64,000 bases of DNA from a virus (IMGVR_UViG_2849712525_000001), one strand, 5' to 3'. Shown: positions 47,595 to 64,000, counted from the stretch's first letter. The notes: generated from the sequence alone by a model not told the origin. Numbers and translations: made by a program.

Positions 47595-48262
47595 AAACTT
47601 GTTGGGCATTCAGTGTGAACTCTATAACTCAGAGGTGTCTCATTACATGAGGCTAACGGTATCAGTTGAATAAGATGGTCATTCAAACCCTACAGGGAGA
47701 TAATGATAATAGTTGAATTGCATGATATGCAATCCAATCAACGAAGTCGCTGACTAAGAAAGCCTAAGGTCCAGAAATGGATAGCTGGTAATATCCGTGC
47801 TAAATTTGCAATTTAATATATTATGAAGCTTCTCGATTTGCATTTAATAATTACAATGTTAGTTTTCATTCATTATCTAAGTGTCTAAGATGTGGTGAAT
47901 TTGAAATAATTCCAATGAACCCAAAAAACAGAAAAAATACAAGCGATGGAATACATCATAAGACCTACAAAACTGGACTAATAAATTTATACTACAAAGA
48001 TAATTTTGTTGGTCAGTATAAAAGTGTTGAAGAAATATATAGAGAATCAAGGAATTATTATGTGTAAACCATATCTTTTAAAAAATGGAGTTAAGTGGTA
48101 ATTATAGAATTGAAAGAATTGCAAAAAAGTGTAACGACTAGAACGTAATTGTTTGTAGGCTAGAAGATGAGTTACTAGCCGAAGTGTACTGACTGATAAG
48201 TTATTTATCAGAAGATATAGTCTATTCCCCTAATAAATATCGGGAAACCGAGGGTATTTTTG
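47595..48262 (+). ncRNA. putative group I self-splicing intron in dnaE
   Basis: 668-nt insertion between codons Pro/Asp of the SMP|DIDTDF motif; 5' exon ends in U, intron ends in G; ATGCCT(exon)/GGGCAT(47604-47609) P1 pairing with U-G; phase 0; flanking ORFs are collinear with DnaE. Confidence 0.6.
47915..48067 (+). CDS. short intron-internal ORF (possible homing-endonuclease remnant)
   Basis: 50-aa ORF MNPKNRKNTSDGIHHKTYKTGLINLYYKDNFVGQY inside intron; in-frame upstream CLRCGEFEI fragment. Confidence 0.25.
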   Translation: MNPKNRKNTSDGIHHKTYKTGLINLYYKDNFVGQYKSVEEIYRESRNYYV

Positions 48263-50464
48263 GATATAGATACAGATTTCCAAAATCAGTATAGACATGT
48301 TATTGTTGAATATGTTCAAGCTAAATATGGGTATGACCATGTTTCACAAATAGTTACTTACAATATGCTAGGCTTGAAAAGCATTATTAGAAACGTAGGG
48401 AAGGTTCTTGGCATTCCTTATCTGGTTACAGATGAATTATCCAAGAATGTTCCTAAGAAAATAAGAAAGTTTGTTTATTTGGAAGAAGAAGATAGAGAAG
48501 AGGAGCAAGAAATTGAACCAACACTGGAAGATTTAAAAACAATTCCTTTTTTTAAAGAAAGAATTGATTCCAGTGAAGATGTTGCTCAACTTTTCAAGAT
48601 TGGTAAACTTTTTGATGGTCTTCCATCTTCAACAGGAAAACACGCCTGTGGAGTTATTATTGGAGCCCATCCACTTCATCAGTATGTTGGCTTAATGGAA
48701 GTTGATGGAGTTCTGGTGACACAATTTGAAAAGAAAGCTTCAGAATCCATTGGGCTTCTCAAAATGGACTTCTTAGGTCTTATTACACTAGACATTGAAG
48801 TGGAGACATTGAGGCTTATAAAGAAAAACAAAGGAATTGAGATAGATTTAGATAAGATTCCATTGGATGATACAAAAACTTTTGAGTTATTACAGAGAGG
48901 TCAATCTGGAAAAGTATTTCAGTTGGAATCTCAGGGAATGCGTAATCTGTTAAAGAAAATGCAACCTACAGATATGAGTCATATTATTGCTATCGCCGCC
49001 CTTTTTCGTCCTGGACCCATGCAATTTATTGATAACTATATCGAAGGAATGAAAACCCCTTCTAAAGTAAAATACCCCCATCCTCTCTATGAAAATTCTG
49101 CAAAAGAAACCTTTGGTATCTTAGTTTATCAGGAACAGATTATGCAGGTTGTGCAGGATATGGCAGGGTTCAGTTTAGGAGAGGCAGATATATTGCGTCG
49201 TGGAATCGGAAAAAAAGATAAGCAATATATCGACCAGATGGAGGAGGAATTTTCCAAACGTTGCGTAGATAATGGTGTCCCTGAAAAGACTGCCAAAGAA
49301 GTCTATGCAATGATAAAGAAATTTGCTGAGTATGGATTTAACAAATCTCATTCAGCAGCATATGCACTCATCGCCTATGAAACTGCATACCTGAAAGCTT
49401 ATTATCCTGTAGAATTTATGGCTGCAAACTGTACTATCAATAGTGATAATAAGGATAAGCTTATATCATGTTTAGCAGAGATAAAAGCGATGGGTATAGA
49501 AATCCTTCCATCATCTATCAGATTCTCTCAAACAAAGTTCACTGTGGAAAAGAGCGAGGGCCAATCAGCTATTCGCTATGGATATATCGGAATTGATGGT
49601 ATAGGTGAAGACATTGCAAAAACTATTGAAACGCTTTCCAATTGTGAAACGTTTTATGATTTTATCAGCCAATGTCCAAATATTCGCAATAACCAGATTA
49701 CAAATCTTATCTATTCTGGGACATTTGATATATTTGGCTGCAGAAAAAAGATGAGAGAGATAGCTCCATCAATTCTTGAAACAGTGAAATACCATAATCA
49801 GATTAAGAGTATATATAAATCATCTATTTTGGATGGCTTAAGTGGTGAAGCGTTCTATGATGGTACAGAATATGGTTTTAAGGAAAAGCTCGATAATGAA
49901 AAAAGAGTTCTTCATTGCTGTATCAGTGGACACCCCTTAGAGCAGATTCGAGGAGTTCTAAAAGGCTATGATACTCTGATTTCAGATATACAAGATTTAA
50001 ATGATGGAGACGATATTCAAATTCTATGTCAGATAAATTCTATACAGCAGATTTTTACAAAGAAAAGTGGAGAGCCAATGGCTTTTCTAAAAATAGAAGA
50101 TGAATACGATTTCTGTGAAGCTATTGTCTTCCCTAAAGCTTATGCAGATATTGAGAATCTTTTAAAAGAAGATTCAGTATTGATTCTTAATGGGAAGATA
50201 CAAATTAAGGAGGACAATGGTGAAGAAAGTATATCTATTATTGTCAATACAGCAAGACATGCATTAAGTAGTGCATTAAGATTCTACGTAGATATAAATG
50301 ATTTAGAAAAAATAGAAGGAGAATTTGTGAATATAAATGGGATTGCTGAAGTGATTGGAGTTGATACAGTTCATAGACAATGCTATAAACAGGCATATTA
50401 TGTAGATTATGTGAAGGCTTTAAATATTTTTAATAAATACAAAATAAAATTTGTATCTGTTTAG
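48263..50464 (+). CDS. dnaE: DNA polymerase III alpha subunit (DnaE), exon 2
   Basis: Begins DIDTDF..HVSQIVTYNMLGLKSIIRNVGKVLG, continues GLLKMDFLGL etc.; spliced product about 1180 aa. Confidence 0.75.
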   Translation, partial: DIDTDFQNQYRHVIVEYVQAKYGYDHVSQIVTYNMLGLKSIIRNVGKVLGIPYLVTDELSKNVPKKIRKFVYLEEEDREEEQEIEPTLEDLKTIPFFKERIDSSEDVAQLFKIGKLFDGLPSSTGKHACGVIIGAHPLHQYVGLMEVDGVLVTQFEKKASESIGLLKMDFLGLITLDIEVETLRLIKKNKGIEIDLDKIPLDDTKTFELLQRGQSGKVFQLESQGMRNLLKKMQPTDMSHIIAIAALFRPGPMQFIDNYIEGMKTPSKVKYPHPLYENSAKETFGILVYQEQIMQVVQDMAGFSLGEADILRRGIGKKDKQYIDQMEEEFSKRCVDNGVPEKTAKEVYAMIKKFAEYGFNKSHSAAYALIAYETAYLKAYYPVEFMAANCTINSDNKDKLISCLAEIKAMGIEILPSSIRFSQTKFTVEKSEGQSAIRYGYIGIDGIGEDIAKTIETLSNCETFYDFISQCPNIRNNQITNLIYSGTFDIFGCRKKMREIAPSILETVKYHNQIKSIYKSSILDGLSGEAFYDGTEYGFKEKLDNEKRVLHCCISGHPLEQIRGVLKGYDTLISDIQDLNDGDDIQILCQINSIQQIFTKKSGEPMAFLKIEDEYDFCEAIVFPKAYADIENLLKEDSVLILNGKIQIKEDNGEESISIIVNTARHALSSALRFYVDINDLEKIEGEFVNINGIAEVIGVDTVHRQCYKQAYYVDYVKALNIFNKYKIKFVSV

Positions 50465-50825
50465 AAAGAGAATATACGAAACTCTTTTCAAAAGAGAGAA
50501 AAAGGTGCTTTGGCATCTTTTTTTTACATAATAAATAGATTACCAATCTTGTGAGTATTTACAACAAATTTGAGTAGAAAGTATTTCAAGAAACTTTGAA
50601 ATCAAGAGTGTGTTGGTGTAAAATAAAAAGGTAAATGGCAGAATATGTCATTTATAATATTTTCAAGAAGGGGAGAAGAAAGACAAAATATTATATTTAG
50701 TAACATTAAGTTTTTAAGACGAAATGAAAAAGAGGGTAAAAAAAAGCCACGTAAAAGTGGGAGTTTCAAGACGATGTTTGCAATAAGTAAATATATCGTT
50801 AGAGAAAAAATTGAATGCGGTTAAA

Positions 50826-50861
50826 TAGCCACGTAAGGGGATACGTGGCTAATATTTTTTT
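50826..50861 (+). terminator. strong rho-independent terminator
   Basis: TAGCCACGTA-AGGGGA-TACGTGGCTA then T8; preceded by GGTTAAATAGCC motif at 50819. Confidence 0.55.
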
Positions 50862-50966
50862 TATAGCAAATAAAAAAAGTAAAGAACATACTTTAAAAAA
50901 TATTTTGCAAGACTTCCAAAAAGCGATGTGAATAGATTATAATAGCTAAAGTAAGGAGGTCATATT

Positions 50967-52004
50967 ATGAGTAAAAACGACCACAAAAACAAAAAAGATT
51001 CAACGAAACGAAAAGGGAAAAACAATCTAATTGAAAATAAGATAAAATTCAAGTATCCTACTTTATACTTTCTATTAAAAAACGGAGCATCCTTTGGAGT
51101 GTTTGTTACAATTATGACAGCTGCTATTGGTATAATTATTGATTCCATACAGACTTTTATTATGCAGGGATATAGTGAGGGATTAGGATTGAGTCATGTC
51201 ACAATAAAGTTAACTTACTTCTCTTATTGGTTGTATGTTCTCTTTGCTTTATTTATTATTTTGCTATTATTTATTGAAATGTTTGCTTTTGCAAGAAACA
51301 AAGAGAAGATATTAGATAAATTCTTGTTTGCTTGTTGTATATTTACAGAAATCTGTTTTTTATTATCAATCTTATTCTATTTGTTTAGGATAAAGTCATT
51401 TGAATTTGTTTGTGCTTTTGGAGTGATATTTGCTATAACTATTTTAGAAATGCTACTCAATAAGTTTAAAGTCCTTTATTATTCCATTTTCGTTTTTGCA
51501 ACTATTGCCTTAGTAGGTATTGATTTTGATATTATTTTTTTGGGTGGAATTATATTAGCGGTCTTGTTTATACCAACTATGTGTGAGTCTTTTGAGAAAA
51601 CATTTTTTAAAATCTTTCCAAGAGATAAGAATACTCAAAAAATGAAAGCGATGGATATAAGAATAGAGCCAATTATAAATATGATGACTTCTGTATTTAT
51701 AATGTTCTTTCTCCTTTCAGCGGTTATCATTTATGCCACTACATCAATAAATAACTTCAAAAAAGAAGGTATGAGTATGCTTTTCAATGAAGATGAAAAC
51801 CAAATAGTTGAGATAGCAGGATTGAAATACTTATTATTAGAAAATACAGATAATCAGAAGCTGATTATGGAGATAACAGATGAAAAAACTGAAGATAATA
51901 TTAAGATTTATACAGTTAAGAGTGGAGAATTCATGTATTTAGAAGAATATGACAAGATAGTTGTGAAAATAGAAAACTGTAAAATAAATGTGAATAAAAA
52001 ATAA
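50967..52004 (+). CDS. polytopic membrane protein, paralog of 11527..12786
   Basis: 345 aa, many TM helices, conserved N-terminal (YPTLYFLLKNGASFG) and C-terminal (KYLLLENTDNQKLIMEITDEK..GEFMYLEEYDK) blocks; AGGAGG RBS. Confidence 0.55.
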   Translation: MSKNDHKNKKDSTKRKGKNNLIENKIKFKYPTLYFLLKNGASFGVFVTIMTAAIGIIIDSIQTFIMQGYSEGLGLSHVTIKLTYFSYWLYVLFALFIILLLFIEMFAFARNKEKILDKFLFACCIFTEICFLLSILFYLFRIKSFEFVCAFGVIFAITILEMLLNKFKVLYYSIFVFATIALVGIDFDIIFLGGIILAVLFIPTMCESFEKTFFKIFPRDKNTQKMKAMDIRIEPIINMMTSVFIMFFLLSAVIIYATTSINNFKKEGMSMLFNEDENQIVEIAGLKYLLLENTDNQKLIMEITDEKTEDNIKIYTVKSGEFMYLEEYDKIVVKIENCKINVNKK

Positions 52005-52285
52005 GAAATGTTTATAAAAAAAGAGGAGCTGGGACTCCTCGGGAAATAGATAGGAATATACACTAGCGAGTAGTATAGACAGTTATACTTTTAAAATAAG
52101 AGTATATTCCCAAGTGAAATATATCACAAATATTGTGAATGGTAAATAAGAAGAGTAAAATTATGTCAAAATATGTAATTATAATATGTTTTAATGCTTT
52201 TGATATAAGAGTTTAATTCCTAAAAAATATATGGTATTCTTTTTATATAGATAAAAAATAATTTTATGAAAGAGAGTGAAATAGT

Positions 52286-52876
52286 ATGATTATATATTTA
52301 TCAAAACAAAAAATTGAGAATTTATTTACTGAAATGAAGTTATCTCGTAAAATAGGTTTTTTAAGAGTAAGAAAAATAGAGTTGAAATCTAGCACTCTTA
52401 GTTTGCATGGTGAAATTAGACGTGCAAATGACAGTATTGAATTTATTGATAAATTTAATTATATTATAAAAATATTAAGAAAGAATAACCAGCTTCTTAA
52501 ATTTGAAAATGATATAAAAGAAATAAAATTGTTCTCATATTATTATATTTCTGGAAAAATGTCTGGACTTGAAAAAGATGTCTTTAATTCAGATGAGATA
52601 ATAGATTTTCACATTAAGTCTCAAAATCCTAATTATACAAGCATTGATATCAAATGTTCAGCAAACAATATTGAATTATTTAGTAGGACTGTGAGTGAAA
52701 AATATAGGATTTCTTCAGGTGCATTTTTTTTAATGAATGAGGAATTTTCTGTCGAATTAATAGTTTGGGTTACTTCAGTAGATATTGATAGCAAGAGAAT
52801 TATCGGGTCTCCACTTATTATAAGTTGTAATAATAATAGCAATCAAATCATATCAAAGAAGCTGGGGATAAAATGA
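52286..52876 (+). CDS. hypothetical protein
   Basis: 196-aa ORF with RBS. Confidence 0.45.
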   Translation: MIIYLSKQKIENLFTEMKLSRKIGFLRVRKIELKSSTLSLHGEIRRANDSIEFIDKFNYIIKILRKNNQLLKFENDIKEIKLFSYYYISGKMSGLEKDVFNSDEIIDFHIKSQNPNYTSIDIKCSANNIELFSRTVSEKYRISSGAFFLMNEEFSVELIVWVTSVDIDSKRIIGSPLIISCNNNSNQIISKKLGIK

Positions 52877-52902
52877 AATTATATTTTGATATAATATATG
52901 TA

Positions 52903-52926
52903 TAGCAGTGCTTCTGCTGGAGATGA
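52903..52926 (+). promoter_or_regulatory. conserved palindrome+RBS motif TAGCAG-N-CTGCTGGAGATGA (copy 1 of 5)
   Basis: AGCAG/CTGCT inverted repeat abutting GGAGATGA, 9 nt before ATG of 52935. Confidence 0.5.
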
Positions 52927-52934
52927 GAAAATGA

Positions 52935-53651
52935 ATGAGTGATAATATAAGTTGGCAAAAAAAAATGAAAGAAGGAGAACATATGACAAGAATATGTGCT
53001 GTGGCTAATCAAGAACAATTAGCTATTTCAGCAGATTCCATGTTTACAAATAAAGAATTAAATATTATCAGTTTTCATAATAGGAAATTGTTTTATAAAA
53101 ATGGGCTAATGATAGGAATGTTAGGAACTTGTGAAGTTTTAACATACAAAGGGACAATTTATTTAAAAGATTGCATCCGCGAATATCTAGATTTATATAC
53201 TGGGGAGAATATATTGGATATAATTTTAGGCATTGAGAATGATATGAGAGACCTTTTTTCAATATTTAAATTGGATAATCCCACAAAATTAATATTTCTC
53301 TGGGTGGATAATTTTGAATTTTATTGCTATGCTTTAGAAATTCGCTATAGTAGAAGGAATCTTGGATGTGATGAATCAGTTTCCGTCTACCCTTTTGGTA
53401 AAATTGATTTAAAAAACTATTCTAAATATAAATTTAATAATTATATGTTGGATACAGGAGAAGGTGTTGATGACATTATTGTTAATAAGTTTTATACTTC
53501 ATTACCTGAGACTATAACTTCAAACATTATCAAAGAGGCAATAGATGATACAAGACTCACAACAGTAGGGGGAAATGTGTATACTGTTATACTTAATAAA
53601 TATGGAAAAGGAAAAACTTTTATCAATGGAAAAGAAACATTCTTTAACTGA
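52935..53651 (+). CDS. Ntn-hydrolase (proteasome-beta/HslV)-like family protein, member A
   Basis: After a 17-aa leader, TRICAVANQEQLAISADS..T fits the GxT-[IV]x[AG].D[ST] proteasome-beta/HslV N-terminal pattern; paralogous to 54934, 59876, 60735. Confidence 0.4.
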   Translation: MSDNISWQKKMKEGEHMTRICAVANQEQLAISADSMFTNKELNIISFHNRKLFYKNGLMIGMLGTCEVLTYKGTIYLKDCIREYLDLYTGENILDIILGIENDMRDLFSIFKLDNPTKLIFLWVDNFEFYCYALEIRYSRRNLGCDESVSVYPFGKIDLKNYSKYKFNNYMLDTGEGVDDIIVNKFYTSLPETITSNIIKEAIDDTRLTTVGGNVYTVILNKYGKGKTFINGKETFFN

Positions 53652-53728
53652 TTATCTGAGTTTGGACTTGGAAGAACTTCTCAACATCTTATGATATAAT
53701 AAGATATATTAATTATGAGGTGGAGATA

Positions 53729-54880
53729 ATGAAAGTAGATATTAGCAGTATTAATCTGTATCCAAAGGATACAAATGGATTTTATTATAAAAGAAAGTAT
53801 TATAGTAATATAAAAGATGCCTTAGAGGGGAAACATCTAAAGCAGGAAGTTTTAGACCAGATTGAAAATTATAAGATTATTCAGAGTGAGTTAAAGGGTG
53901 TAAATACAAGAAGAGTACATAGTTCAGATGTTGGATATGGAGCATCTTGGAGTGAATCTTCGGGGATGTCACATGGTGTATCATGTTCAAGTAGTTCAGG
54001 AACTTCAACTGGTATCAGTTCTAGCATTGGATATAGCATTGGAGATAAAGATGATTTGTTGCATTCTGATATGGAAAAAGAGTTATTTAACAGTTTAAAA
54101 ATTATGAATAATTTAAATGAATTAGATGACTTATTTGAAGATAACATAAATGAGTTGGAGGATATAGTTCAGATATATCTTGACTCAATAATTATACCAA
54201 TTCCATTTTTGAGAGCTAATGAATTCTTTTCCTCTCAAGACATAATTATTCATGATGTCAATATTACACAAGAATATTGTAATATTATCAATAGAATTCA
54301 AAAGAATATCTTATCAAAGAATACGTTTAAACTTGAAGAAATATCAAAATTGGAAAGTGCATATACATTCTTGAAAAACAATTATTCAAACGCTATGTAT
54401 TTTTATAAAGAAGAAGGAAAAGAAGAGAAACGAACAAAAGATTTAACTAAATTAGATTTTAGTAAAAAATATAGTTATATACTTTATGTACTATCAGATA
54501 TATCCATTTATGACTGCAAAGCTAAGGATAAATTTAGTAAATTATTAAAAGATTTGACTGATATTCAAATATTGTGTTTTGACAATACATTTTCATTTGA
54601 AGAAAAGAAGTTTAAGAGTCAAAATAAATTAAAGAAAGAATATATAGTTGAGGATAAATCAATTTTTGGGTATATAAAAGATAAATGCTATGAAAAACCA
54701 GTCATATTATTGGAAGGATTAGATAATAAACTTGTTAATAAAGAAATATTACTAAAAGATTATCAATCGGAGGTGCTAATAAATAGAGAATTTGTGAATT
54801 TTGATAAATCTTTCTGTAATGATAAGACTGCATATCTAGAATTTACAACTGGAAACTATATTTATTGGTGTATCATATAA
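53729..54880 (+). CDS. hypothetical protein with Gly/Ser-rich low-complexity segment, paralog of 18626..19705
   Basis: Start MKVDISS after GAGGTGGAG RBS; conserved N-terminal block shared with 18626 gene; internal SWSESSGMSHGVSCSSSSGTSTGISSSIGYSIG. Confidence 0.5.
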   Translation: MKVDISSINLYPKDTNGFYYKRKYYSNIKDALEGKHLKQEVLDQIENYKIIQSELKGVNTRRVHSSDVGYGASWSESSGMSHGVSCSSSSGTSTGISSSIGYSIGDKDDLLHSDMEKELFNSLKIMNNLNELDDLFEDNINELEDIVQIYLDSIIIPIPFLRANEFFSSQDIIIHDVNITQEYCNIINRIQKNILSKNTFKLEEISKLESAYTFLKNNYSNAMYFYKEEGKEEKRTKDLTKLDFSKKYSYILYVLSDISIYDCKAKDKFSKLLKDLTDIQILCFDNTFSFEEKKFKSQNKLKKEYIVEDKSIFGYIKDKCYEKPVILLEGLDNKLVNKEILLKDYQSEVLINREFVNFDKSFCNDKTAYLEFTTGNYIYWCII

Positions 54881-54906
54881 TTATGGGATTCACTTGCTAA
54901 ACAAGA

Positions 54907-54929
54907 TAGCAGTCAGTTGCTGGAGATGA
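54907..54929 (+). promoter_or_regulatory. conserved palindrome+RBS motif (copy 2 of 5)
   Basis: TAGCAGTCAGTTGCTGGAGATGA, 4 nt before ATG of 54934. Confidence 0.5.
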
Positions 54930-54933
54930 AATA

Positions 54934-55575
54934 ATGATAACAGTTCAATCAAACAATATAAGAAGGGATATGAATAGTATGAGCTTTGTAGGAATGACAA
55001 TATGTGATGATGGTATTGTAGCATTTGGAGATAGCAAAGGAACTATAAGAGATGCATTAGGAAATAGCAAAGAAGATACAAAAAGAGGAAACATTCAAAA
55101 AGTCTTTAAAAACAATCATTATGTTTTAGTAACATGTAATGCCAACACATTCTTTGATGAAAGCAATTTTAATATAAATATAGAGAATTTTATGTTAGAT
55201 AATATTAATAACTACAACAATTATTTTGATTTTTTTGAAAAACTATTATGTAGAATATCTTCAAATCAATTGAATTTTAATAATTTATATAAATTTATAA
55301 TTGGGAGTAAAGATGAATTTGGCTATTATGTACAGCATGTTGATATTATAAATAATCAAATAATTATTTGTAAGAAGTTTAGAGATTTGCAAACTTATAC
55401 TATGGGAAACGATTACTATACCCATTTGACATATACTTTTAATTTTAGACTTAATCAAATATTGCTAATTCAAAATGAGATAAAAGATAAAATAGAAAAT
55501 ATAATCAAAGATGTAGATAAGTTTTCTTCCTACAATCCTGTAGGGCTCCCTGTAAATGTAGAGATATTTCAGTAG
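54934..55575 (+). CDS. Ntn-hydrolase (proteasome-beta/HslV)-like family protein, member B
   Basis: MSFVGM|TICDDGIVAFGDSKGTIRDALGNSKEDTKRGNIQKVFKNNHYVLVT parallels HslV [32 protein letters not shown]; same C-terminus (VGLPVNVEIFQ) as 60735. Confidence 0.45.
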   Translation: MITVQSNNIRRDMNSMSFVGMTICDDGIVAFGDSKGTIRDALGNSKEDTKRGNIQKVFKNNHYVLVTCNANTFFDESNFNINIENFMLDNINNYNNYFDFFEKLLCRISSNQLNFNNLYKFIIGSKDEFGYYVQHVDIINNQIIICKKFRDLQTYTMGNDYYTHLTYTFNFRLNQILLIQNEIKDKIENIIKDVDKFSSYNPVGLPVNVEIFQ

Positions 55576-55768
55576 AAAGATAAAATTTATTTAGGTGATA
55601 GAAGAAGCTTTAAATACTGGTTAATATTATCAGTATTCAAGGCTTCTTTTTATCTTGTATAAAGATAAAGCAAGAAGATAGTCTGTTTTTTAATAAAAAT
55701 ATCTATTTATTCTATATTGGTGTGAAAAATGTTGTATTATAGAAATATATATGGGAGGAGTTTTCATA

Positions 55769-58700
55769 ATGATTACTATAAATTGGAGTAAATTTCAACT
55801 TAAAAATAAAAATACTACAGAAGCGTTTGAGAGTTTGTGTTATTTTTTGTTTTGTCGTAAGTTTCAAATAACTGAAGGCATCCATACAGATTTTAATCAA
55901 GTTGGTTTAGAAACTGAACCTATTCAGGATTGTGATGGAAAATGGTGGGGATTTCAAAGTAAATTCTTTGAGAAGAATATGAATTACTTAAATATTAGTC
56001 AATCAATATCAAAAGCTGTGAAAGCATATAAAAACCTCGATTATATCATTGTGTATGTAAATCTATTTGTCAAAACAACATGTAATGCTGCCAAAAAAAT
56101 AGAGGATATTTGTAGGAAAGAAAATATAGAACTTATATGGTATTTACCTCAAAACTTTGAAGTTGAACTCAATCAGCCTAATAATTTAGACTTGGCAGAA
56201 TTCTTTTTTGGTGATACCAATCTTTTAGAAGCGATTGCAGATAGCAAAAGTGTTAGAATGAATACTCTTTTACATTCAAAAGAATATCTTGAGTTGCAAT
56301 TAAAAAATAATAAGGATGTTTTAACAATAACTCATTTTTGTAATGAAATTTTAGAAAAAAATTCCAAACTGTTTCTATTAACAGGAAATGCGGGAACTGG
56401 AAAAAGTGTTTGTATGAGAAAAATCTCTAACATTTTTTCAGGATTAGAAGAAGAATCAGCTGATAATCAACTTCGAAAAATTGAATCTGTGAATGCGTTA
56501 TGTGTATTTATAAATCTTAATAACACATCTTTCGATAATCTGGAAAAGATAATAAATAACTATAAAAAAATGTATTATGCAAATACTTCAATAAATAAAT
56601 TTATATACTTACTTGATGGTTTTGATGAAGTGCCAAACCAAATTGTCACACAAACTCTATTATTTATAGAAGGACTTTTGGATAAAGACCAAACAAAAAA
56701 GATAATTATTTCATCTCGAATATCAAGTCATAATAAATTTATCCTTAAAGCAACATTTCAAAACATTGAAGAATATACAATTGTTGATTTATCTAAGGAT
56801 TTAATAAATAAGTATTTTCAAAGTAAAAATGACATAGATAGAAGTAGACAATTTGAAATTTTTTATGAAAACAATGAAAACTTATATGATAATCTACCAG
56901 ATATTCTAACCTTATCTCTGTTTTGGGAATATATCCTTCAAATAAAGCATACTCATTTTCTTTCTGATTTATTAAATCTAAGTATTCATACAACACTTAA
57001 TGATATCCATTACAAAAAGTATTTGGATGGACTTAATCTGCCTAATCCGAAAGAAAATGCAATTTTAAAAATAAATAAGGAATTATCCTATTCGCTATTT
57101 ATAGATAATGAATTCAGTTTCACACGAGAAAGACTAATAAGTATTATTTCTAAATATTATCCAAAGTGTGATTATCAATCACAAAATAATATTATTTCAT
57201 ATTTATCTGACTGCTTTTTTGATTATAATTTAACTGATAATAGCTTTATTTTTTCTTATCAGCATAGACGTTTTTTAGAATACTTTGCAATTTTAAAATT
57301 TGAAACAATGATGAAAGAAGATTTATGTTTTTTAAGAAAGAAAGATATAATCGTTAATTATGATATGTTTGAAAATTTACTTATTCCTCATCTCCAAAAT
57401 CAATCAGAAAAGAATAATGATTTACCCTTAGCATTTGAAATCAGTTTATTTAATGTTTATTTAGATAATGATGACAATTGGGGAGTTGATAAGTATCCTT
57501 ACTATTGGTCTAATTACATAGTTTATGCAATTGCAGGACTTTCTCATGATTTATTTGAGATTGTTCTTAATGATACTTCATTGCCTATTCATAAGTTCTT
57601 TAATTATATGGGGGATAAAACTATTTCTTTATTACAAACTGGAAATACCAATTACCAGGATTTAGATTATTTTTATAGAAATTTTATAAGCTTAATTTCT
57701 TTAATGTATCAATATGGAAAAAGAGAGTATTTATCTATATATTTAGATAAATTTCTTACAATCGACAACTTAAGCCAAGGCAATAAATACTATTATAATG
57801 CATCTGTAAGAGATAATTTTCTTGTCTGGAGGAATCTAGTATATATTAAAATGATTATTTTGAATTGCGATGTTGATAAAATATTAGATAACTTAATAGA
57901 GAATAGCAAAGATATAAATATTGATAATTTACTTAAGAACAATAATGATATATCTATAAATCAAATAACTGCTATTTATTATAATCTCATTATGTATTAT
58001 CCACAGAAATGTGCAAAAACCATTTCTGAAATGAATTACAATCAATTAAGTATATTTATTGTTTCTATGGCTACAGTGGAATGTCTGGAAAGAATTTTAA
58101 ATAATAATGTCATTCTAAAAACTCTTCAAACAGTTTTAGCTGATGAAATTACTGGAAACAAATTGAGCAGTCTGGCTTGTATAGCCTTAAAAGGTATTAT
58201 AAATGTGCAATTGACAGTAAATGAAAGAGAGTCTTTGACAATTTTCCTGGAAGGGCAAAAATTTGACTACTTTTCATTAAATGAAGATAATATTGACTTT
58301 ATCAGTTTCTTATTTATACCACTTAATGTCAAAGCAAAGGGACATGCATCAATAATAGATTATATAATGTTGTACAGAGACTATTATAGACTCATAACTT
58401 GCGACTGCTCTTTACAGTATTTTGCGTCTCAACTTGTTGAATACCTAAATAATGCAAAAAAGATGAAATATCTGGGTCAGAAACTCATAGGTAAAGCAAT
58501 AGCATTTGCAAGTTTGGATATAGTAGAACTAAAAAATGTAATAGATTATGTTAATTATAATACGGACAACGAAAACTTATTAAAAGTTTATTTTACATTA
58601 AAATCATATAATTCTCAACAATACGATAAGCTTATTAATTCATCTATGATAGAACAGTTGAATAGAGAAGATATTTATTATGATATTGATTATATATCAA

Positions 58701-59839
58701 CAAGTGAATCACTTTTCCAATTATCCTTCATAACATCTTCTAAAGAAAGTATACAGGGATATAATTTATTAATGCAAGGAATAAGAAGTGTGGTTATGAG
58801 AATGGATGAGAGCAAGGACAGTTTAGCAGATAGTGTGCTCATTCCTGGATTGAAGTGTATTATTAAAAACAATTGGCTAACTTCTGAAAAATTAAAAGCT
58901 TATTTGGATAAAATTTTGGAGATAACGGTCCAAATGAAAAAATATAATATCCAAAATTCCACTCATAGTATGCTAATAAATATACTTATTCAATATGATT
59001 TTGATATGGCTATATATTGTTATAGGCAATCATCATCAATTATTGATGATAATCGAGTCCATTATGAAATGGCTTTGGGGATTGTAAGCAGAGGACAAAA
59101 AATTGAATTGGCTGAAGAATGTCTTAAAAATGCAAGATATTTAATTAATGATTATTTTCAAAAATTTAATTTGGATTATTTCTATCATAAAATTAATGTA
59201 TATTTAAAAATTGCATCATGTGATTTTTATGATAAAAACACACAAAGAGAATATTTTGATAAGGCTGAAAAAGTTATTAAATCTATGGTTGATAGTGGCT
59301 GGAATAAAGAATTAAATGAAGCTGAATATAATCTGTATATAAAATTGTGTAATGAATTTAATAAACAAGTAGATGTTAAAAAGAGAGTTAGTAATTATCC
59401 TACTGAAATTCATAAAACTAATAAAATTAATTCCTTAGAAATACTTAAGGCAATCAATAAAGAAGAAGCTCTAAATTCATTTATTCAGGAGATTCGAAGA
59501 GCACATAAGCTAGATTCTATTGAAATAAATGAAGTCCTTATTCAAAAGTCTTTGGATATTACAGGAAATGTTAACAAAATTGTTAATATGTTTAAGGATT
59601 ATCATTATCCAAGTACCAATAGATATTCAAATAATAGTTTGAATTTTTGGATGACTGTTGCTGCAGCCTTAAAAAATCCATTATCTAAATCAGAAATGAT
59701 GAAGTATCTTATAGAAAATGGAGGAGGACATGATGGTTTTGGTGAGATGATAAAGGTTTTCGCCTATTTAGGAGATAAAGAGATGAGTATTAAGCTTTTT
59801 GAAAGTTTATTAAAATGTATTGAATTCTTATTGTGTTAA
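55769..59839 (+). CDS. STAND (NACHT-like) NTPase with N-terminal putative effector domain and long helical C-terminal region (Avs/NLR-like)
   Basis: Walker A LLTGNAGTGKSVCM and Walker B LLDGFDEV in NACHT arrangement; about 170-aa N-terminal domain; about 900-aa helical C-terminus; start at ATG after GGGAGGAG RBS; 1356 aa. Confidence 0.65.
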   Translation: MITINWSKFQLKNKNTTEAFESLCYFLFCRKFQITEGIHTDFNQVGLETEPIQDCDGKWWGFQSKFFEKNMNYLNISQSISKAVKAYKNLDYIIVYVNLFVKTTCNAAKKIEDICRKENIELIWYLPQNFEVELNQPNNLDLAEFFFGDTNLLEAIADSKSVRMNTLLHSKEYLELQLKNNKDVLTITHFCNEILEKNSKLFLLTGNAGTGKSVCMRKISNIFSGLEEESADNQLRKIESVNALCVFINLNNTSFDNLEKIINNYKKMYYANTSINKFIYLLDGFDEVPNQIVTQTLLFIEGLLDKDQTKKIIISSRISSHNKFILKATFQNIEEYTIVDLSKDLINKYFQSKNDIDRSRQFEIFYENNENLYDNLPDILTLSLFWEYILQIKHTHFLSDLLNLSIHTTLNDIHYKKYLDGLNLPNPKENAILKINKELSYSLFIDNEFSFTRERLISIISKYYPKCDYQSQNNIISYLSDCFFDYNLTDNSFIFSYQHRRFLEYFAILKFETMMKEDLCFLRKKDIIVNYDMFENLLIPHLQNQSEKNNDLPLAFEISLFNVYLDNDDNWGVDKYPYYWSNYIVYAIAGLSHDLFEIVLNDTSLPIHKFFNYMGDKTISLLQTGNTNYQDLDYFYRNFISLISLMYQYGKREYLSIYLDKFLTIDNLSQGNKYYYNASVRDNFLVWRNLVYIKMIILNCDVDKILDNLIENSKDINIDNLLKNNNDISINQITAIYYNLIMYYPQKCAKTISEMNYNQLSIFIVSMATVECLERILNNNVILKTLQTVLADEITGNKLSSLACIALKGIINVQLTVNERESLTIFLEGQKFDYFSLNEDNIDFISFLFIPLNVKAKGHASIIDYIMLYRDYYRLITCDCSLQYFASQLVEYLNNAKKMKYLGQKLIGKAIAFASLDIVELKNVIDYVNYNTDNENLLKVYFTLKSYNSQQYDKLINSSMIEQLNREDIYYDIDYISTSESLFQLSFITSSKESIQGYNLLMQGIRSVVMRMDESKDSLADSVLIPGLKCIIKNNWLTSEKLKAYLDKILEITVQMKKYNIQNSTHSMLINILIQYDFDMAIYCYRQSSSIIDDNRVHYEMALGIVSRGQKIELAEECLKNARYLINDYFQKFNLDYFYHKINVYLKIASCDFYDKNTQREYFDKAEKVIKSMVDSGWNKELNEAEYNLYIKLCNEFNKQVDVKKRVSNYPTEIHKTNKINSLEILKAINKEEALNSFIQEIRRAHKLDSIEINEVLIQKSLDITGNVNKIVNMFKDYHYPSTNRYSNNSLNFWMTVAAALKNPLSKSEMMKYLIENGGGHDGFGEMIKVFAYLGDKEMSIKLFESLLKCIEFLLC

Positions 59840-59847
59840 AATAAGTA

Positions 59848-59870
59848 TAGCAGTCAACTGCTGGAGATGA
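59848..59870 (+). promoter_or_regulatory. conserved palindrome+RBS motif (copy 3 of 5)
   Basis: TAGCAGTCAACTGCTGGAGATGA, 5 nt before ATG of 59876. Confidence 0.5.
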
Positions 59871-59875
59871 GGTAA

Positions 59876-60694
59876 ATGGCTAGAAAAGAATCACATTCGC
59901 GTTCAATTATGCCTGTTGATTATTCTAAGAAATTAGATGTGAGTATAGAAAGGAATTTTTATGATATGACAAGTATTATAGGTATGCAGACTAAGAAGAG
60001 TATATGTATCGGTGCAGACTCATGGAATACAAATCCAAGAGACAATCATTTTATCCAGAAACTGTTCGTTAACAAAGATAAAAGCGTAATTATAGCAAGT
60101 GCTGGAGATAATTCTAAATCATATGATGATTTTAATATTATTTATGTTAAAGATATAATTACAGAGTTGCTAAATGCTTATACTTCCTTTGATGTATTGT
60201 ACAATAATCTTATTTTAAAATCAGCAGAGTTTTTAGAGGATATGGATATTGAAGACAGAGCAAAGTTTATTCAATATTATATTGCTTGGATAGATGAAGG
60301 AAAAATAAAAACAAAGAGAGTGGAAATCAAAAAAGTGAAAGAGGCACAGCTCATAAAAAATGAAAATTTAGTTTTAAATGAGATAGGGACAAGCAAAGAA
60401 TATTATATGTATATTATTGACTTCACAAAAGAGGGCAATCCTGCTTTTAATTGCATAGGAACATATGCTGAATTATTTAATACTAATAAAAGGCATATAA
60501 AAAAAATTCCAAAGGAAACAGATAATATACAAAAAATTGTATTCAACAAGATTAGGCAACAGATTCAAAAAAATGATAGAGAAAAAAAGAATAACAAAGC
60601 AGATAAAACTATAGGAAATCCTATTTATGAGGTTTATATGGATATTCAAGGAAATGTCTGTACCTATATGAATGGCGTTGAAGAGAATTTTTAA
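59876..60694 (+). CDS. Ntn-hydrolase (proteasome-beta/HslV)-like family protein, member C
   Basis: Leader ..MTSIIGMQ then TKKSICIGADSWNT...KSVIIASAGDNSKSY (GxDS and AGxxD proteasome-like motifs). Confidence 0.4.
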   Translation: MARKESHSRSIMPVDYSKKLDVSIERNFYDMTSIIGMQTKKSICIGADSWNTNPRDNHFIQKLFVNKDKSVIIASAGDNSKSYDDFNIIYVKDIITELLNAYTSFDVLYNNLILKSAEFLEDMDIEDRAKFIQYYIAWIDEGKIKTKRVEIKKVKEAQLIKNENLVLNEIGTSKEYYMYIIDFTKEGNPAFNCIGTYAELFNTNKRHIKKIPKETDNIQKIVFNKIRQQIQKNDREKKNNKADKTIGNPIYEVYMDIQGNVCTYMNGVEENF

Positions 60695-60707
60695 TATAAT
60701 AAATATA

Positions 60708-60730
60708 TAGCAGTACTCTGCTGGAGATGA
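60708..60730 (+). promoter_or_regulatory. conserved palindrome+RBS motif (copy 4 of 5)
   Basis: TAGCAGTACTCTGCTGGAGATGA, 4 nt before ATG of 60735. Confidence 0.5.
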
Positions 60731-60734
60731 AATA

Positions 60735-61388
60735 ATGGAATGTAAAACAAATAGCATAAGAAAGGTTGGAGAAAATATGAGCTTTGTTGGCTTGCATAAT
60801 ACAAGAGAGGGAATCATTGGTTTTGCGGATAGTAAAGCAACATTAAGGTTTGCAAATGGTGTGATAGGTGAGGACGTCCAAAGAGGAAAGATAACTAAAA
60901 TATTTAAAAATGATAAATTTATTTTTGTTACACATGGTCATAATGAAATCTTTTCTGAAAAGAATAGAGTGAATATAGAAGATTATATTGCTGAACATTT
61001 AAAAAACGGAATTGACTATGAAATTTTTTTTAAATCTCTTGATGAGGCTATCCAAAATGATAAAGGCGATTATCATGATGGAAAATATGCTTTTATAATA
61101 GGAAGCAAAAACAAGAACAATAAATATTTTTTGCTTCGATGTTTCATAGAATATGATAAAAGAATTGTTTTTTCAAAAAAGGAATATGGAAAACAGGTTT
61201 TTTATGGAGGTAGTGAGTTTTATTGTCATTTATATAATAATCAAACATTTTATAATCATATCGAAATATCTAAATATGCTGATATGATTAAAAATTATAT
61301 TGAAACAATTATTGATGCAAAAGATGTATTTTCTGAAATTGAGTACAATGATGTAGGGAAACCTGTGAATGTAGAAATATTTCAGTAG
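60735..61388 (+). CDS. Ntn-hydrolase (proteasome-beta/HslV)-like family protein, member D
   Basis: MSFVGLHN|TREGIIGFADSKATLRFANGVIGEDVQRGKITKIFKNDKFIFVTHG; C-terminus VGKPVNVEIFQ as in member B. Confidence 0.45.
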   Translation: MECKTNSIRKVGENMSFVGLHNTREGIIGFADSKATLRFANGVIGEDVQRGKITKIFKNDKFIFVTHGHNEIFSEKNRVNIEDYIAEHLKNGIDYEIFFKSLDEAIQNDKGDYHDGKYAFIIGSKNKNNKYFLLRCFIEYDKRIVFSKKEYGKQVFYGGSEFYCHLYNNQTFYNHIEISKYADMIKNYIETIIDAKDVFSEIEYNDVGKPVNVEIFQ

Positions 61389-61603
61389 GGTAAATATATT
61401 ACTCTATGGATAATTAAAATATTTATATAAATGACCGACAAATTGGACCTGAATTATGTTTTTTTTAGTAAAAGTAGAAGAGAAAATGATGATTTAGTCA
61501 AACCTTGGTAATACTTATATATAATATCAGTATATTTTTGTATTAATTCATTTTCACAAACATAAAATAATGGTATACTGTATAAACATAAGAGGTGAAT
61601 TTT

Positions 61604-63013
61604 ATGAAAAAAATATTGCACATAAGAAATTTTGGAAAAATAAAACAAGCAGATATTGATTTACAAGAATTTGTATTATTTGTAGGTGATAATAACAGTG
61701 GAAAAACATATATAATGCAACTCATCTATGGGATTTTTAATTATATTGCAAAAACAAATTTTAAAAAACCTTCAAATATAGCTATTCCATCAAATTTTGA
61801 GGACTTTACAATTAATAATAACAGTTTTAATTATTATATTGATTGGCTAAATCAGAATATTAAAAAAGATATTACAGATATTATTCTGGATACATTTAAT
61901 AAGAATATTCCAGTTGGTGAGATTTGGTTTGAAATAGATTTGGAAAAGTATGATATTGATTGCAAGATATTTAGAAATTATAATTTAAAACAATTCTTTT
62001 ATAATGATGAAAAAAATGAAAATTTCACAATAGATATTGATTCTATAGTTAATGAAACTGAATCTACAATTGTGGCTGAAGTATCTCTTAAGGATGAAGA
62101 ATTAGTAACGATAAGGTCTATCAAAAGTCTGACTTTTTTGGATTCTAGTGATATACATAATGGTAAATATCAAGAGAAACTTATTTCTTCATTGCTTCAA
62201 ATGTTATATACTATAATATTTAAATTTACAAAATCACCATTATATTTACCATCATCTAGAGCAGGATTACATTTATTGTATAAAGAATATTTTTTAAGTA
62301 AGGGAGATATTGATTTTAATAAGAACCAAGTTATAGTTGACGATTCCAAAGATATAAGTCATGATTCAACGTTAACAAAGCCATTATATAACTATTTACG
62401 ATTTTTACAAAAATGGTCATTTGATAATAGAACAGCAAAAGAGAATCAGAAATTAATAGATTTTTTAGAGAATCGTTTAATTGATGGAGTATATCAAAAA
62501 ACAGAAAATATTGAATATATTCCTAATGGCTCAGAAGAATCGATTCCATTATATTTGTCATCATCAATGATATCTGAGTTAATCCCTTATTATTATTTTA
62601 TATGTAGTAAGGAATATAGTATAACAGATTATTTAATGATAGATGAGGCTGAATCAAGCTTGCATCCAAAAAAGCAATTTGAATTAGTTAGATTATTAGT
62701 TAGATTAAATAATCATAAGAAAACTATTATTATGAGTACACATAGTGATAGCCTTGCTGCTAAAATTAACAATATTGTCTTAATTTCGAATAAGTTTAAA
62801 AATAAGTCTGAAGACTTGCTAAGAAAATATAATTTAAATAAAGACGATTTGTTTAATAATCCAAATATCAAGGTTTATTCATTCTCAAATAAGGGAACTT
62901 ATAGTCAAGTTGATGAAGTTCCTTATGATAGGAAAATTGGTTTTACATTTGAAGGATTTGAAGATGCTTTAGATAGTTTAGTAGAAGAAGCAGAAGAAAT
63001 ATATAGGAATTGA
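61604..63013 (+). CDS. ABC/SMC-type (AAA_15/21-like) ATPase
   Basis: Walker A GDNNSGKTY, Walker B YLMIDEAESSLHP, H-loop IMSTHSD; start at ATG after AGAGGTGA RBS. Confidence 0.7.
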   Translation: MKKILHIRNFGKIKQADIDLQEFVLFVGDNNSGKTYIMQLIYGIFNYIAKTNFKKPSNIAIPSNFEDFTINNNSFNYYIDWLNQNIKKDITDIILDTFNKNIPVGEIWFEIDLEKYDIDCKIFRNYNLKQFFYNDEKNENFTIDIDSIVNETESTIVAEVSLKDEELVTIRSIKSLTFLDSSDIHNGKYQEKLISSLLQMLYTIIFKFTKSPLYLPSSRAGLHLLYKEYFLSKGDIDFNKNQVIVDDSKDISHDSTLTKPLYNYLRFLQKWSFDNRTAKENQKLIDFLENRLIDGVYQKTENIEYIPNGSEESIPLYLSSSMISELIPYYYFICSKEYSITDYLMIDEAESSLHPKKQFELVRLLVRLNNHKKTIIMSTHSDSLAAKINNIVLISNKFKNKSEDLLRKYNLNKDDLFNNPNIKVYSFSNKGTYSQVDEVPYDRKIGFTFEGFEDALDSLVEEAEEIYRN

Positions 63014-63022
63014 GAGAATACT

Positions 63023-63757
63023 ATGGAATTACAATATGTAAAATATGATGAAGGAACAAAAATCCAAAAAAGAAAACTATACAAAATAGATACTACAAAC
63101 GATAGTATATCTATAGATACAGTAGAAAAGCATTCAGATGACAAATATTGTGAATGTCTTCAATCAAAAATCAATATCTATTATGACCAAAATATTGAAA
63201 CATTCTTTGGACATGAATATAAACCAGAAGGTATTAAAAGCTCTAATTCAAAAAACACTGATATTGTAATAGGATTTTGTAGTAAATTAGAGAAGAAAAT
63301 AAAATACCATTCAATTGATTTGAAGCGCAATCTTATTACTTTTTCTGCCTTAGATACGCCTGAATATAATTTAAAAATTACTTATCAAACTATTTCACAT
63401 CTTATTGAACAGTGGACTGATAATTTAATATATGCAAATATGTGGAAGTGTATTTATAGAGCAAAATATCTAGACTTTCGCCCAATAGTAGCTACAAGAT
63501 ATTATAAGGAGGAGAATTTAGAATCTCTATTACTTTTAAATGAAAAAACTGATAGAAATATTGAATTACCAGGTATAGTGGATAAAAAAAGAAAGCTTAA
63601 GGAAAATGAAATAAAACAAAAATTGAAGGTGTTAAGAGATTTTATAGAAAAAAGAGCTGAATTAGATGGTCAATACTTTTCACTGGAAATAATCGTATTG
63701 GATAAACAAGAAGAGAATAAAAGATATTTTAAATGTTATGATTTCAAATATTACTAA
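63023..63757 (+). CDS. hypothetical partner protein of ABC-type ATPase
   Basis: 244-aa ORF 9 nt downstream of ATPase gene. Confidence 0.45.
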   Translation: MELQYVKYDEGTKIQKRKLYKIDTTNDSISIDTVEKHSDDKYCECLQSKINIYYDQNIETFFGHEYKPEGIKSSNSKNTDIVIGFCSKLEKKIKYHSIDLKRNLITFSALDTPEYNLKITYQTISHLIEQWTDNLIYANMWKCIYRAKYLDFRPIVATRYYKEENLESLLLLNEKTDRNIELPGIVDKKRKLKENEIKQKLKVLRDFIEKRAELDGQYFSLEIIVLDKQEENKRYFKCYDFKYY

Positions 63758-63905
63758 AAAATTAAATATTAATATTTAATTGTTAAGGACTATTTTATAG
63801 AGATGTAGTCCTTTTTAACTTAGATATTAATTTATAATCTATATAAAATACAGTTAAATGTAGTATATATCTACAAAAATTAAGTTTTCATATATAATGA
63901 TAAAA

Positions 63906-63928
63906 TAGCAGTCAACTGCTGGAGATGA
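63906..63928 (+). promoter_or_regulatory. conserved palindrome+RBS motif (copy 5 of 5)
   Basis: TAGCAGTCAACTGCTGGAGATGA, identical core to copy 3. Confidence 0.5.
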
Positions 63929-64000
63929 TTTTTATCAGAAGTAATAGTTATAGAAACAATAAGCCCATTTCAATGAGTTATAATAGTATAAGAAGGGATA
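63925..64000 (+). CDS. partial 5' end of a fifth family member (runs off window)
   Basis: Open frame from ATG in motif to window end; internal MSYNSIRRD at 63973 matches B (SNNIRRD) and D (TNSIRKV). Confidence 0.3.
   Translation, partial: MIFIRSNSYRNNKPISMSYNSIRRD

Follow-up and report, generated by a model that had tools for sequence, protein, structure and literature searches.

Several bacterial leaders are described as stabilising messenger RNA (mRNA) from its 5′ end, and the account in PMC3997798 gives ermC, atpE and the STAB-SD of cryIIIA as precedents. The leader of Bacillus subtilis aprE, in which a 5′ stem-loop is combined with a ribosome-binding site, makes the mRNA more stable (Hambraeus et al. 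2002, cited in PMC3997798), and according to that account the stem-loop at its 5′ end is required, as is binding by the ribosome; the STAB-SD belongs to cryIIIA of Bacillus thuringiensis (Agaisse & Lereclus 1996, likewise cited in PMC3997798). Here we describe a short leader in IMGVR_UViG_2849712525_000001, a stretch of 64,000 nt that was analysed whole and is called the window below, with leader coordinates counted from its first letter. The leader, a hairpin joined to a Shine-Dalgarno (SD) sequence, recurs five times in a defence island, before divergent paralogs of a gene family with a predicted proteasome-like fold. Comparison with the leaders of homologous genes gives high confidence in a conserved sense-strand hairpin under selection, and its pattern of change favours an RNA structure over a DNA operator. 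We lean slightly towards a role in which this 5′ hairpin and its strong SD would stabilise the mRNA and aid the start of translation, as in leaders of the aprE and STAB-SD kind. The same motif is also a recombination junction between gene cassettes.

Results

A palindrome joined to the Shine-Dalgarno sequence recurs five times

A pattern scan for TAGCAG-N4-5-CTGCTGGAGATGA returned exact copies at 52903, 59848, 60708 and 63906, and no match in 100 dinucleotide-preserving shuffles. A first-pass annotation, made from the sequence of the window, had listed five copies of one pattern; all five were recovered and four are exact, but the copy at 54907 reads TAGCAGTCAGTTGCTGGAGATGA, differing by a single substitution, T for C where the 3′ arm begins, that leaves a G-U pair in RNA. 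Two further statements of that annotation were confirmed: copy 3 matches copy 5 at all 23 nt, and the AGCAG and CTGCT arms form a 5-bp stem abutting GGAG, with an optional sixth pair (U-G) that uses the first G of GGAG. When 120 nt around each copy were aligned, about 25 columns were invariant, all of them within the motif, and the flanks could not be aligned. In copy 1 the hairpin and the extended SD, GGAGATGA (52919-52926), overlap by one G, and in copy 2 the loop-closing pair is the G-U pair, with the SD at 54922-54929. The SD and the AUG are unpaired in the centroid folds of all five copies (Table 1), and a switch that sequesters the SD was rejected because the SD lies outside the stem.

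The motif had been reported nowhere else in the window, and this too is borne out. A covariance model (CM) scored the five copies at 28.7-37.5 bits and the next-best site in the 64 kb, both strands included, at 17.3 bits; GGAGATGA occurs six times in the window, five of them within the motif, and the other window genes use GGAGGTGA or GAGGTGAT. Gut-metagenome contigs encoding homologs of the family were fetched, with their loci numbered L0xx, and in a strain identical over the shared part at least one further copy, the sixth, lies just past the end of the window (L081:17806). Across 185,579 species genomes the exact motif gave 45 single, taxonomically scattered matches, against an estimated 26 or so expected by chance, and none stood beside a family homolog; the exact sequence is therefore not widespread, and the source genome was not in the scanned set. 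Among viral contigs the motif gave five singleton matches, with no protein relatives and no sign of a phage origin.

The stem covaries among homologous leaders

Homolog leaders carry arms of other sequence, TAGTGG/CCACTA, TGGTAG/CTACTA, TGGTAG/CTACCA, TGATAG(T)/(A)CTATCA, TTGTAG/CTACAG, TAGTAG/CTACTG, TGGCGA/TTGCCA, AGTGA/TCACT and GGTAT/ATGCC. Among 31 distinct leaders, chosen for the hairpin and aligned with MAFFT on sequence alone, 92.5% of cells pair, and double-sided changes affect five of the six pairs (32 cells); the score for covariation is 0.57 versus 0.32 when shuffled, 0 of 500 shuffles reach 0.57, and registers slid along the alignment pair 18-72% of cells. With 43 distinct leaders, fitted by alignment to the covariance model, 98.4% of cells pair and double-sided changes occur in 43 cells.

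Because these sets had been chosen for or fitted to the hairpin, an unselected test was run on every unique start with an SD ahead of it, in the window as well as in the fetched loci, counting hairpins of at least 6 bp with at least two G-C pairs that abut the SD. Such a hairpin was found in 25 of 55 superfamily leaders versus 4 of 182 others (Fisher p=1e-14), and the 23 nt 5′ of the SD had a median minimum free energy (MFE) of -4.0 kcal/mol in the superfamily versus 0.0 kcal/mol in the others (p=4e-11). These stricter tests replaced an earlier one that accepted any stem of 5 bp or more in the neighbourhood of the SD, and in which the background was 43%. The enrichment and the compensatory conservation at homologs uphold the earlier proposal that the reuse of the motif is functional and specific to the family.

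Every change in the arms is a transition, on the pattern U-R-G-Y-R-G; at two stem positions G-U pairs are seen, on the sense strand only; and the loop varies from 3 to 8 nt across leaders (4-5 nt within the window). Together these features are the mark of an RNA stem that changes by way of wobble intermediates, and they argue against a DNA operator, for which the spacing has to be fixed. Conservation is about 90% at the U that opens the loop and at the A ahead of the stem, the sequence 5′ of the hairpin is AU-rich, and within the TAGCAG class the stem is invariant and the loops drift. A scan of 50000-64000 with the Rfam 15 covariance models returned only a chance microRNA match (E=0.5).

Shine-Dalgarno sequence and start codons

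In all of the hairpin leaders GGAGATGA, GGAGTGAT or GAGGTGAT stands 0-1 nt past the stem; homolog leaders run from the stem, within 0-1 nt, into GGAG, GGGA or AGGA plus (A/G)TGAT and then the start codon. The complement of the 16S 3′ tail in Bacillus and related Firmicutes is GGAGGUGA, with which GGAGAUGA agrees at 7 of 8 positions. Given this near match, 'GATGA' is counted as part of an extended SD, and GGAGATGA reads as an extended anti-16S Shine-Dalgarno sequence.

An in-frame start codon lies 4-10 nt past the SD in most copies, copy 5 and the leader of L084 being the only ones without. The earlier claim that each copy stands 4-9 nt before a start codon holds for copies 1-4, where ATG follows at 8, 4, 5 and 4 nt, but fails for copy 5, which has no ATG, GTG or TTG in that range. 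The only in-frame ATGs there are inside GGAGATGA (63925) and at 63973, and in an ortholog of the gene the start is placed by gene callers at the downstream Met-Thr. In L084 the hairpin and SD are kept and ATT stands where the adjacent start codon is expected. A leader retained despite loss of the adjacent start codon, as in these two cases, fits a role independent of that codon.

For copies 1-4, a mini open reading frame (mini-ORF) of 2-3 codons starts at the ATG within GGAGATGA (MRK, MK, MR and MK, respectively, each followed by a stop that abuts or overlaps the main start). A mini-ORF from the AUG inside GGAGAUGA was considered and rejected: it is inconsistent in other sources and its AUG has no spacing from the SD, and it was treated as a by-product. 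The Ser or Thr nucleophile position is directly preceded by an invariant internal Met codon, and 9-12 nt ahead of that codon stands another SD-like sequence (AGAAAGG or GAAGGAG); in one homolog (P0014) the gene call begins at the internal Met only. The genes may thus have two starts, one giving a precursor with an N-terminal extension and the other a form that would expose the Ser or Thr once the Met is removed.

Predicted promoter boxes and the probable position of the hairpin in the transcript

A -10-like hexamer, for which A2 and T6 and a minimum of 5 of 6 matching bases were required, ends 4-10 nt before the hairpin in 28 of 51 unique leaders versus 11% of random positions, and 18 of these 28 have a TGn extension. 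The leaders without a -10 box lie 0-13 nt past the stop codon of an upstream family gene. With a -10 box at this distance, transcription is predicted to begin at the first stem base or beside it, from which we infer that in about half of the leaders the hairpin forms the 5′ end of the mRNA or lies a few nt from it at most. A generic scan flagged the reverse complement of three copies as weakly terminator-like; these candidates were rejected, the stems being of 5 bp and no minus-strand genes being present.

The same layout of -10 box, hairpin and SD is seen at a few unrelated genes. Before a 105-aa gene that starts at 37427 on the minus strand, positions 37427-37470 hold GATATAAT, 6 nt, CTGTAGC-AAA-GCTACGG overlapping GGAGG, and an ATG; a 536-aa gene in L054 likewise has the layout, with an unrelated stem. 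These cases point to a generic cis mechanism and to a design that, in this organism, is not exclusive to the family.

Another kind of leader, about 110 nt long and 92-95% conserved, occurs in the same island past the right end of the window (L081:14049-14157 and 18735-18843), before two paralogous membrane-anchored proteins of 235-246 aa. It comprises TATAAT, a hairpin GAGGATAT-N4-(T)TATCCTC, then TTTATATAT and GGAGG; its CCTC arm could pair with the SD instead, making a switch possible.

Rearrangements between strains end at the leader

Strains at least 99% identical to one another were compared (genes as in Table 1). L061 joins window 48928-52937 to 60689-64000 and is thus without about 52.9-60.7 kb; the junction falls within the motif, with an upstream flank and loop like those of copy 1 and a downstream side like that of copy 4. 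In L074 the stretch 55576-60706 is missing; it begins at the stop codon of p213 and ends 1 nt short of copy 4, so that the 1362-aa Avs-like gene and p272 are lost together. Copy 4 is the right-hand breakpoint of both deletions. In six strains a pair of PD-T4-4-like defence genes is swapped for others, from 2 nt past the p217 stop to 1 nt before copy 5, the right-hand boundary of the swapped block, and in these strains the flank ahead of copy 5 is that of copy 3. L074 is also without window 52283-52835, nearly the entire 196-aa gene (52286-52876) upstream of copy 1 (compare L074:7214-7223).

The motif is therefore also a recombination junction between cassettes, and on the simplest reading short-homology crossovers fall at the leader because its 25-45 nt or so are the only sequence that divergent cassettes have in common. 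The recombination hotspot put forward by the first-pass annotation is real in so far as three strain differences end in a copy or 1 nt from it; most simply, this recombination would be a consequence of a repeated, selected sequence and not the primary function.

Stem type follows the genome. The same stem is shared by 131 of 185 paralog pairs within a source, down to 27 bits of protein similarity. With the nearest protein relative in a different source it is shared in only 9 of 53 cases; the genes at L088:93 and L063:1738, with 347 bits of protein similarity, have stems TGGTAG/CTACCA and TGATAG/CTATCA. The arrays of L046, L047 and L065 contain mixed stem types. Uniformity of the stem within a genome may be due to homogenisation by recombination.

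The downstream genes have a predicted proteasome-like fold

The five window paralogs share 13-26% protein identity, and p213 has a 100% identical counterpart in Coprobacillus cateniformis, annotated as a hypothetical protein. Searches of the family against Pfam, PADLOC, NCBIfam and PDB sequences gave no match. An AlphaFold2 model of p213 (predicted local distance difference test score, pLDDT, 92.3) returned more than 150 PDB matches at E<=0.001 in Foldseek; those listed are 20S subunits, with probability 1.0 and a template modelling (TM) score of 0.55-0.57 at best. By this model the family is a divergent proteasome/HslV-like N-terminal nucleophile (Ntn) fold.

An alignment of 40 sequences shows a near-invariant Met-Ser-Phe-Val-Gly (M-S/T), an invariant D33 (+17 from the Ser, 16 residues after it), an invariant K56, and an N-terminal extension that varies from 0 to 130 residues. 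The nucleophile position is Ser in most members and Thr in p238 and p272. Read off the alignment, D33 and K56 would be equivalent to Asp17 and Lys33. In L075 and L083 (9141-9960 in each) p272 is split into ORFs of 125 and 150 aa by an apparent frameshift, with its leader intact.

The surrounding defence island

Between p213 and p272 lies a gene for a 1362-aa protein (55751-59839) with an Avs4-like N-terminus (PADLOC E=4e-34, residues 7-226) and an NACHT/NPHP3-type NTPase. Between p217 and copy 5, positions 61595-63757 encode a PD-T4-4_A-like AAA_15 ATPase of 472 aa (E=7e-45) together with its partner of 244 aa; in six other strains this slot holds FRG, Peptidase_C14 (caspase-like) and SLFN_AlbA_2 genes (L078:10788-14618), and in L080 yet other genes. 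On other gut-metagenome contigs (L048, L088) the family forms arrays of 4-9 divergent paralogs, often near Pycsar, retron reverse transcriptase, SIR2 and Fic genes.

No partner gene conserved next to the arrays across sources was found in the fetched loci. Pfam labels on the called genes of at least 40 loci included one Phage_integrase, at the island edge of L076, and none adjoining arrays elsewhere. L076 has, in place of the island's left part, a segment carrying phage-type integrase and helix-turn-helix genes. Upstream of the island (46254-50464) a DNA polymerase III alpha-like gene is seemingly split into ORFs of 454 aa (PHP domain) and 734 aa, which adjoin a RadC-like gene (Pfam labels from the equivalent L074 genes).

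Table 1. Positions in the window of the five leader copies, the sequence elements around them and the family genes that follow.
Feature	Position	Strand	Description
Leader copy 1	52903..52926	+	TAGCAG-TGCTT-CTGCTG (52903-52919); CM 33 bits; hairpin MFE -6.7 kcal/mol, SD and start codon both unpaired; before p238
Leader copy 2	54907..54929	+	AGCAG-TCAG-TTGCT; CM 28.7 bits; fold -3.8 kcal/mol; before p213
Leader copy 3	59848..59870	+	Exact pattern, CM score and fold; 8 nt past the stop of the 1362-aa Avs-like gene; before p272
Leader copy 4	60708..60730	+	Exact pattern; CM 37.5 bits; 13 nt past the p272 stop; before p217
Leader copy 5	63906..63928	+	Exact pattern; CM 29.9 bits; before the fifth family gene, which runs off the window
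Extended -10-like TGATATAAT	52887..52895	+	Contains TATAAT; ends 7 nt ahead of hairpin 1
TAAAAT	59837..59842	+	5/6 of -10 consensus; ends 5 nt ahead of hairpin 3; overlaps the stop of the 1362-aa gene
TATAAT	60695..60700	+	Ends 7 nt ahead of hairpin 4, directly past the p272 stop
TATAAT	63893..63898	+	Ends 7 nt ahead of hairpin 5; TCTACA upstream at 17 nt spacing
Mini-ORFs, copies 1-4	52923-52937, 54926-54936, 59867-59878, 60727-60737		Probably incidental
Second SD and internal Met	52966-52985, 54962-54981, 59949-59968, 60763-60779
p238	52935..53651	+	Thr type; internal Met-Thr at 52983, GAAGGAG ahead
p213	54934..55575	+	Ser type; internal Met-Ser at 54979
p272	59876..60694	+	Thr type; internal Met-Thr at 59966
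p217	60735..61388	+	Ser type; internal Met-Ser at 60777
Fifth family gene, 5′ part	63925..64000	+	Thr type; 221 aa from Met-Thr in other strains

Discussion

The account that we favour, by a slight leaning, is that of a sense-strand RNA leader acting in cis, made of a hairpin of 5-6 bp with a loop of 3-8 nt, then the extended SD GGAGAUGA and, mostly, the start codon of the precursor. In leaders with a -10 box the hairpin would be the primary 5′ end of the mRNA. In those that follow stop codons it would be intercistronic, becoming a 5′ end only after cleavage or 5′-to-3′ trimming, to which it would form a barrier. A 5′ hairpin together with a ribosome on the adjacent SD would shield the transcript from 5′-end-dependent decay (RppH, RNase J1, RNase Y), and by keeping the SD single-stranded the two would give every paralog an equal and robust start of expression.

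Several observations weigh against this account. The hairpin is weak (-3.8 to -6.8 kcal/mol) and its single-sequence energies are ordinary (z from +0.9 to -1.3), so that all of the structural support is comparative, and the leader sets used for pair counts, chosen (31) or model-fitted (43) for the hairpin, are phylogenetically related. Promoter calls are consensus matches in AT-rich DNA, where a generic scan, with 121 found versus 101 expected, tells little. The hairpin is missing from some family members: those of Anaerostipes type in L052, L053 and L073, and a number of those in L047 and L050. A role that depends on structure alone leaves the conserved U at the first loop position and A before the stem unexplained, and it is insufficient to account for stems that are identical among very old paralogs within a genome and different between orthologs.

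This last pattern would fit a genome-specific trans-acting factor, such as a family protein or a small RNA, that would bind the hairpin and co-regulate the paralogs post-transcriptionally, for example by holding back possibly harmful proteases until they are needed. Co-evolution of stem and factor would produce stems uniform within a source (131 of 185 pairs) and rarely shared between sources (9 of 53), and the conserved U and A, as well as the invariant TAGCAG-class stem among drifting loops, would suit recognition. Yet the loops vary in length and sequence, a plain A-form stem of 5-6 bp offers little to read, no partner gene is conserved beside the arrays, three loci mix their stems (L046, L047, L065), and recombination, which can account for the uniformity, is directly seen at the leader; we regard such a factor as unlikely. 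The first-pass annotation had offered binding by a regulator among its candidate functions, and in general this is poorly supported, given the 3-8 nt spacing, the free loops, the sense-only G-U pairs and the compensatory replacement of stems. In particular, the palindrome could be the DNA operator of a dimeric repressor, lying across the transcription start; this would explain an inverted repeat placed just past the -10 box and repeated in five copies of one genome, but half-sites 3-8 nt apart (4-5 in the window), G-T at two paired positions, transitions that preserve pairing, and promoterless copies directly after stop codons make it the hardest reading to credit, with next to no probability. 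Hardly more credible is the absence of any special function, the leader being a duplicated strong ribosome-binding context inherited with the paralogs: the SD part is indeed an ordinary, if extended, ribosome-binding site, but 23 nt are identical despite 13-26% protein identity and unalignable flanks, pairing is restored by compensation across sources, and the motif is not at other window genes.

The breakpoints of L061, L074 and the PD-T4-4-like swap, together with orthologous genes that bear the stem of the recipient genome, could instead mark a dedicated integron-like cassette recombination site, worked by a recombinase or by a single-strand hairpin process. Against this stand a length of 16-20 nt, far below that of attC, and an orientation and spacing locked to the -10 box, SD and start codon. 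No recombinase is consistently adjacent, the one integrase being at the island edge of a single strain (L076); G-U pairs are mismatches in DNA; the left-hand breakpoints fall at stop codons rather than at a second site; and recombination over short homology needs no dedicated system. A dedicated site is thus quite improbable. A wider version, in which the leader would be the address tag of a cassette system whose genome-specific factor or process keeps the leaders of an array identical and mediates exchange of genes and defence systems, has a small chance of being right. Finally, the hairpin might work solely inside polycistronic mRNAs, as an RNase processing site or decay barrier that separates cistrons of different stability. 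The first-pass annotation had proposed an RNase processing signal of this sort, and for copies standing directly past an upstream stop it may apply. About half of the leaders lie 0-13 nt past a stop without a good -10 box (copy 2, L062-64, L065:2407, L072 and several in L088), and the sequence 5′ of the hairpin is AU-rich, but a suitably placed -10 box of their own precedes the remaining half and the stem is too short for RNase III, for which reason an RNase III site was rejected. A role confined to processing is quite improbable, and it overlaps the stabilising leader that we favour rather than excluding it.

A compact, covarying leader without an Rfam entry thus marks uncharacterised genes for proteasome-like Ser/Thr hydrolases among anti-phage systems of gut Bacillota, and the motif offers a handle for locating the paralog arrays. 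It would provide a natural test case for how, where bacteria possess RNase J and RNase Y, a 5′ hairpin and a strong SD govern the fate of an mRNA, and it illustrates how a short selected leader can turn into a crossover point that reshuffles the content of a defence island between strains at least 99% identical. Should a dedicated factor lie behind the uniformity within genomes, it would be a new regulatory or recombination system; should the leader be an address tag, it would reveal an undescribed organisation of a hypervariable defence island, with Avs-like, PD-T4-4-like and FRG/caspase/SLFN genes exchanged between leaders.

Among known systems, the encoded proteins resemble proteasome beta subunits and HslV in their predicted alpha-beta-beta-alpha Ntn fold and, as read off the alignment, the Ser or Thr after Met, the Asp at +17, the invariant Lys and the propeptide-like extension; they differ in having no match at the sequence level, in being mostly Ser rather than Thr, and in their arrays of divergent paralogs in defence neighbourhoods. 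The integron attC site is an imperfect palindrome with R′′, L′′, L′ and R′ boxes that lies 3′ of a promoterless cassette. Like attC, the leader is a palindromic repeat that bounds variable gene blocks and is uniform within an array and different between genomes, but it measures 16-20 nt versus 57-141 nt, lies 5′ of its gene, is fused to a promoter and SD, and has no R or L boxes and no IntI nearby. With ROSE and fourU thermometers it shares a small hairpin at the ribosome-binding site; unlike these and repressor hairpins, it leaves the SD outside the stem, where only the first G can pair.

The nearest parallels are the 5′-end stabilisers. As in a STAB-SD, an SD-like site near the 5′ end could bind the 16S tail and stop 5′-to-3′ decay without serving a start codon (copy 5, L084), although a STAB-SD is an SD-like sequence not used for initiation and has no obligatory hairpin, and most copies here depart from this in that their SD serves an in-frame start. 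As in the aprE leader, a short stem-loop at the predicted 5′ end of the mRNA has a strong SD close by, in a Bacillota host that uses RNase J1 and RNase Y for decay from the 5′ end; this likeness comes with no sequence relationship to aprE, and the leader described here is distinguished by a hairpin-SD gap of 0-1 nt, by its presence across a family and by its covariation. The design of the leader, a 5′ hairpin with an SD, is already known; the proteasome-like family attached to it is undescribed.

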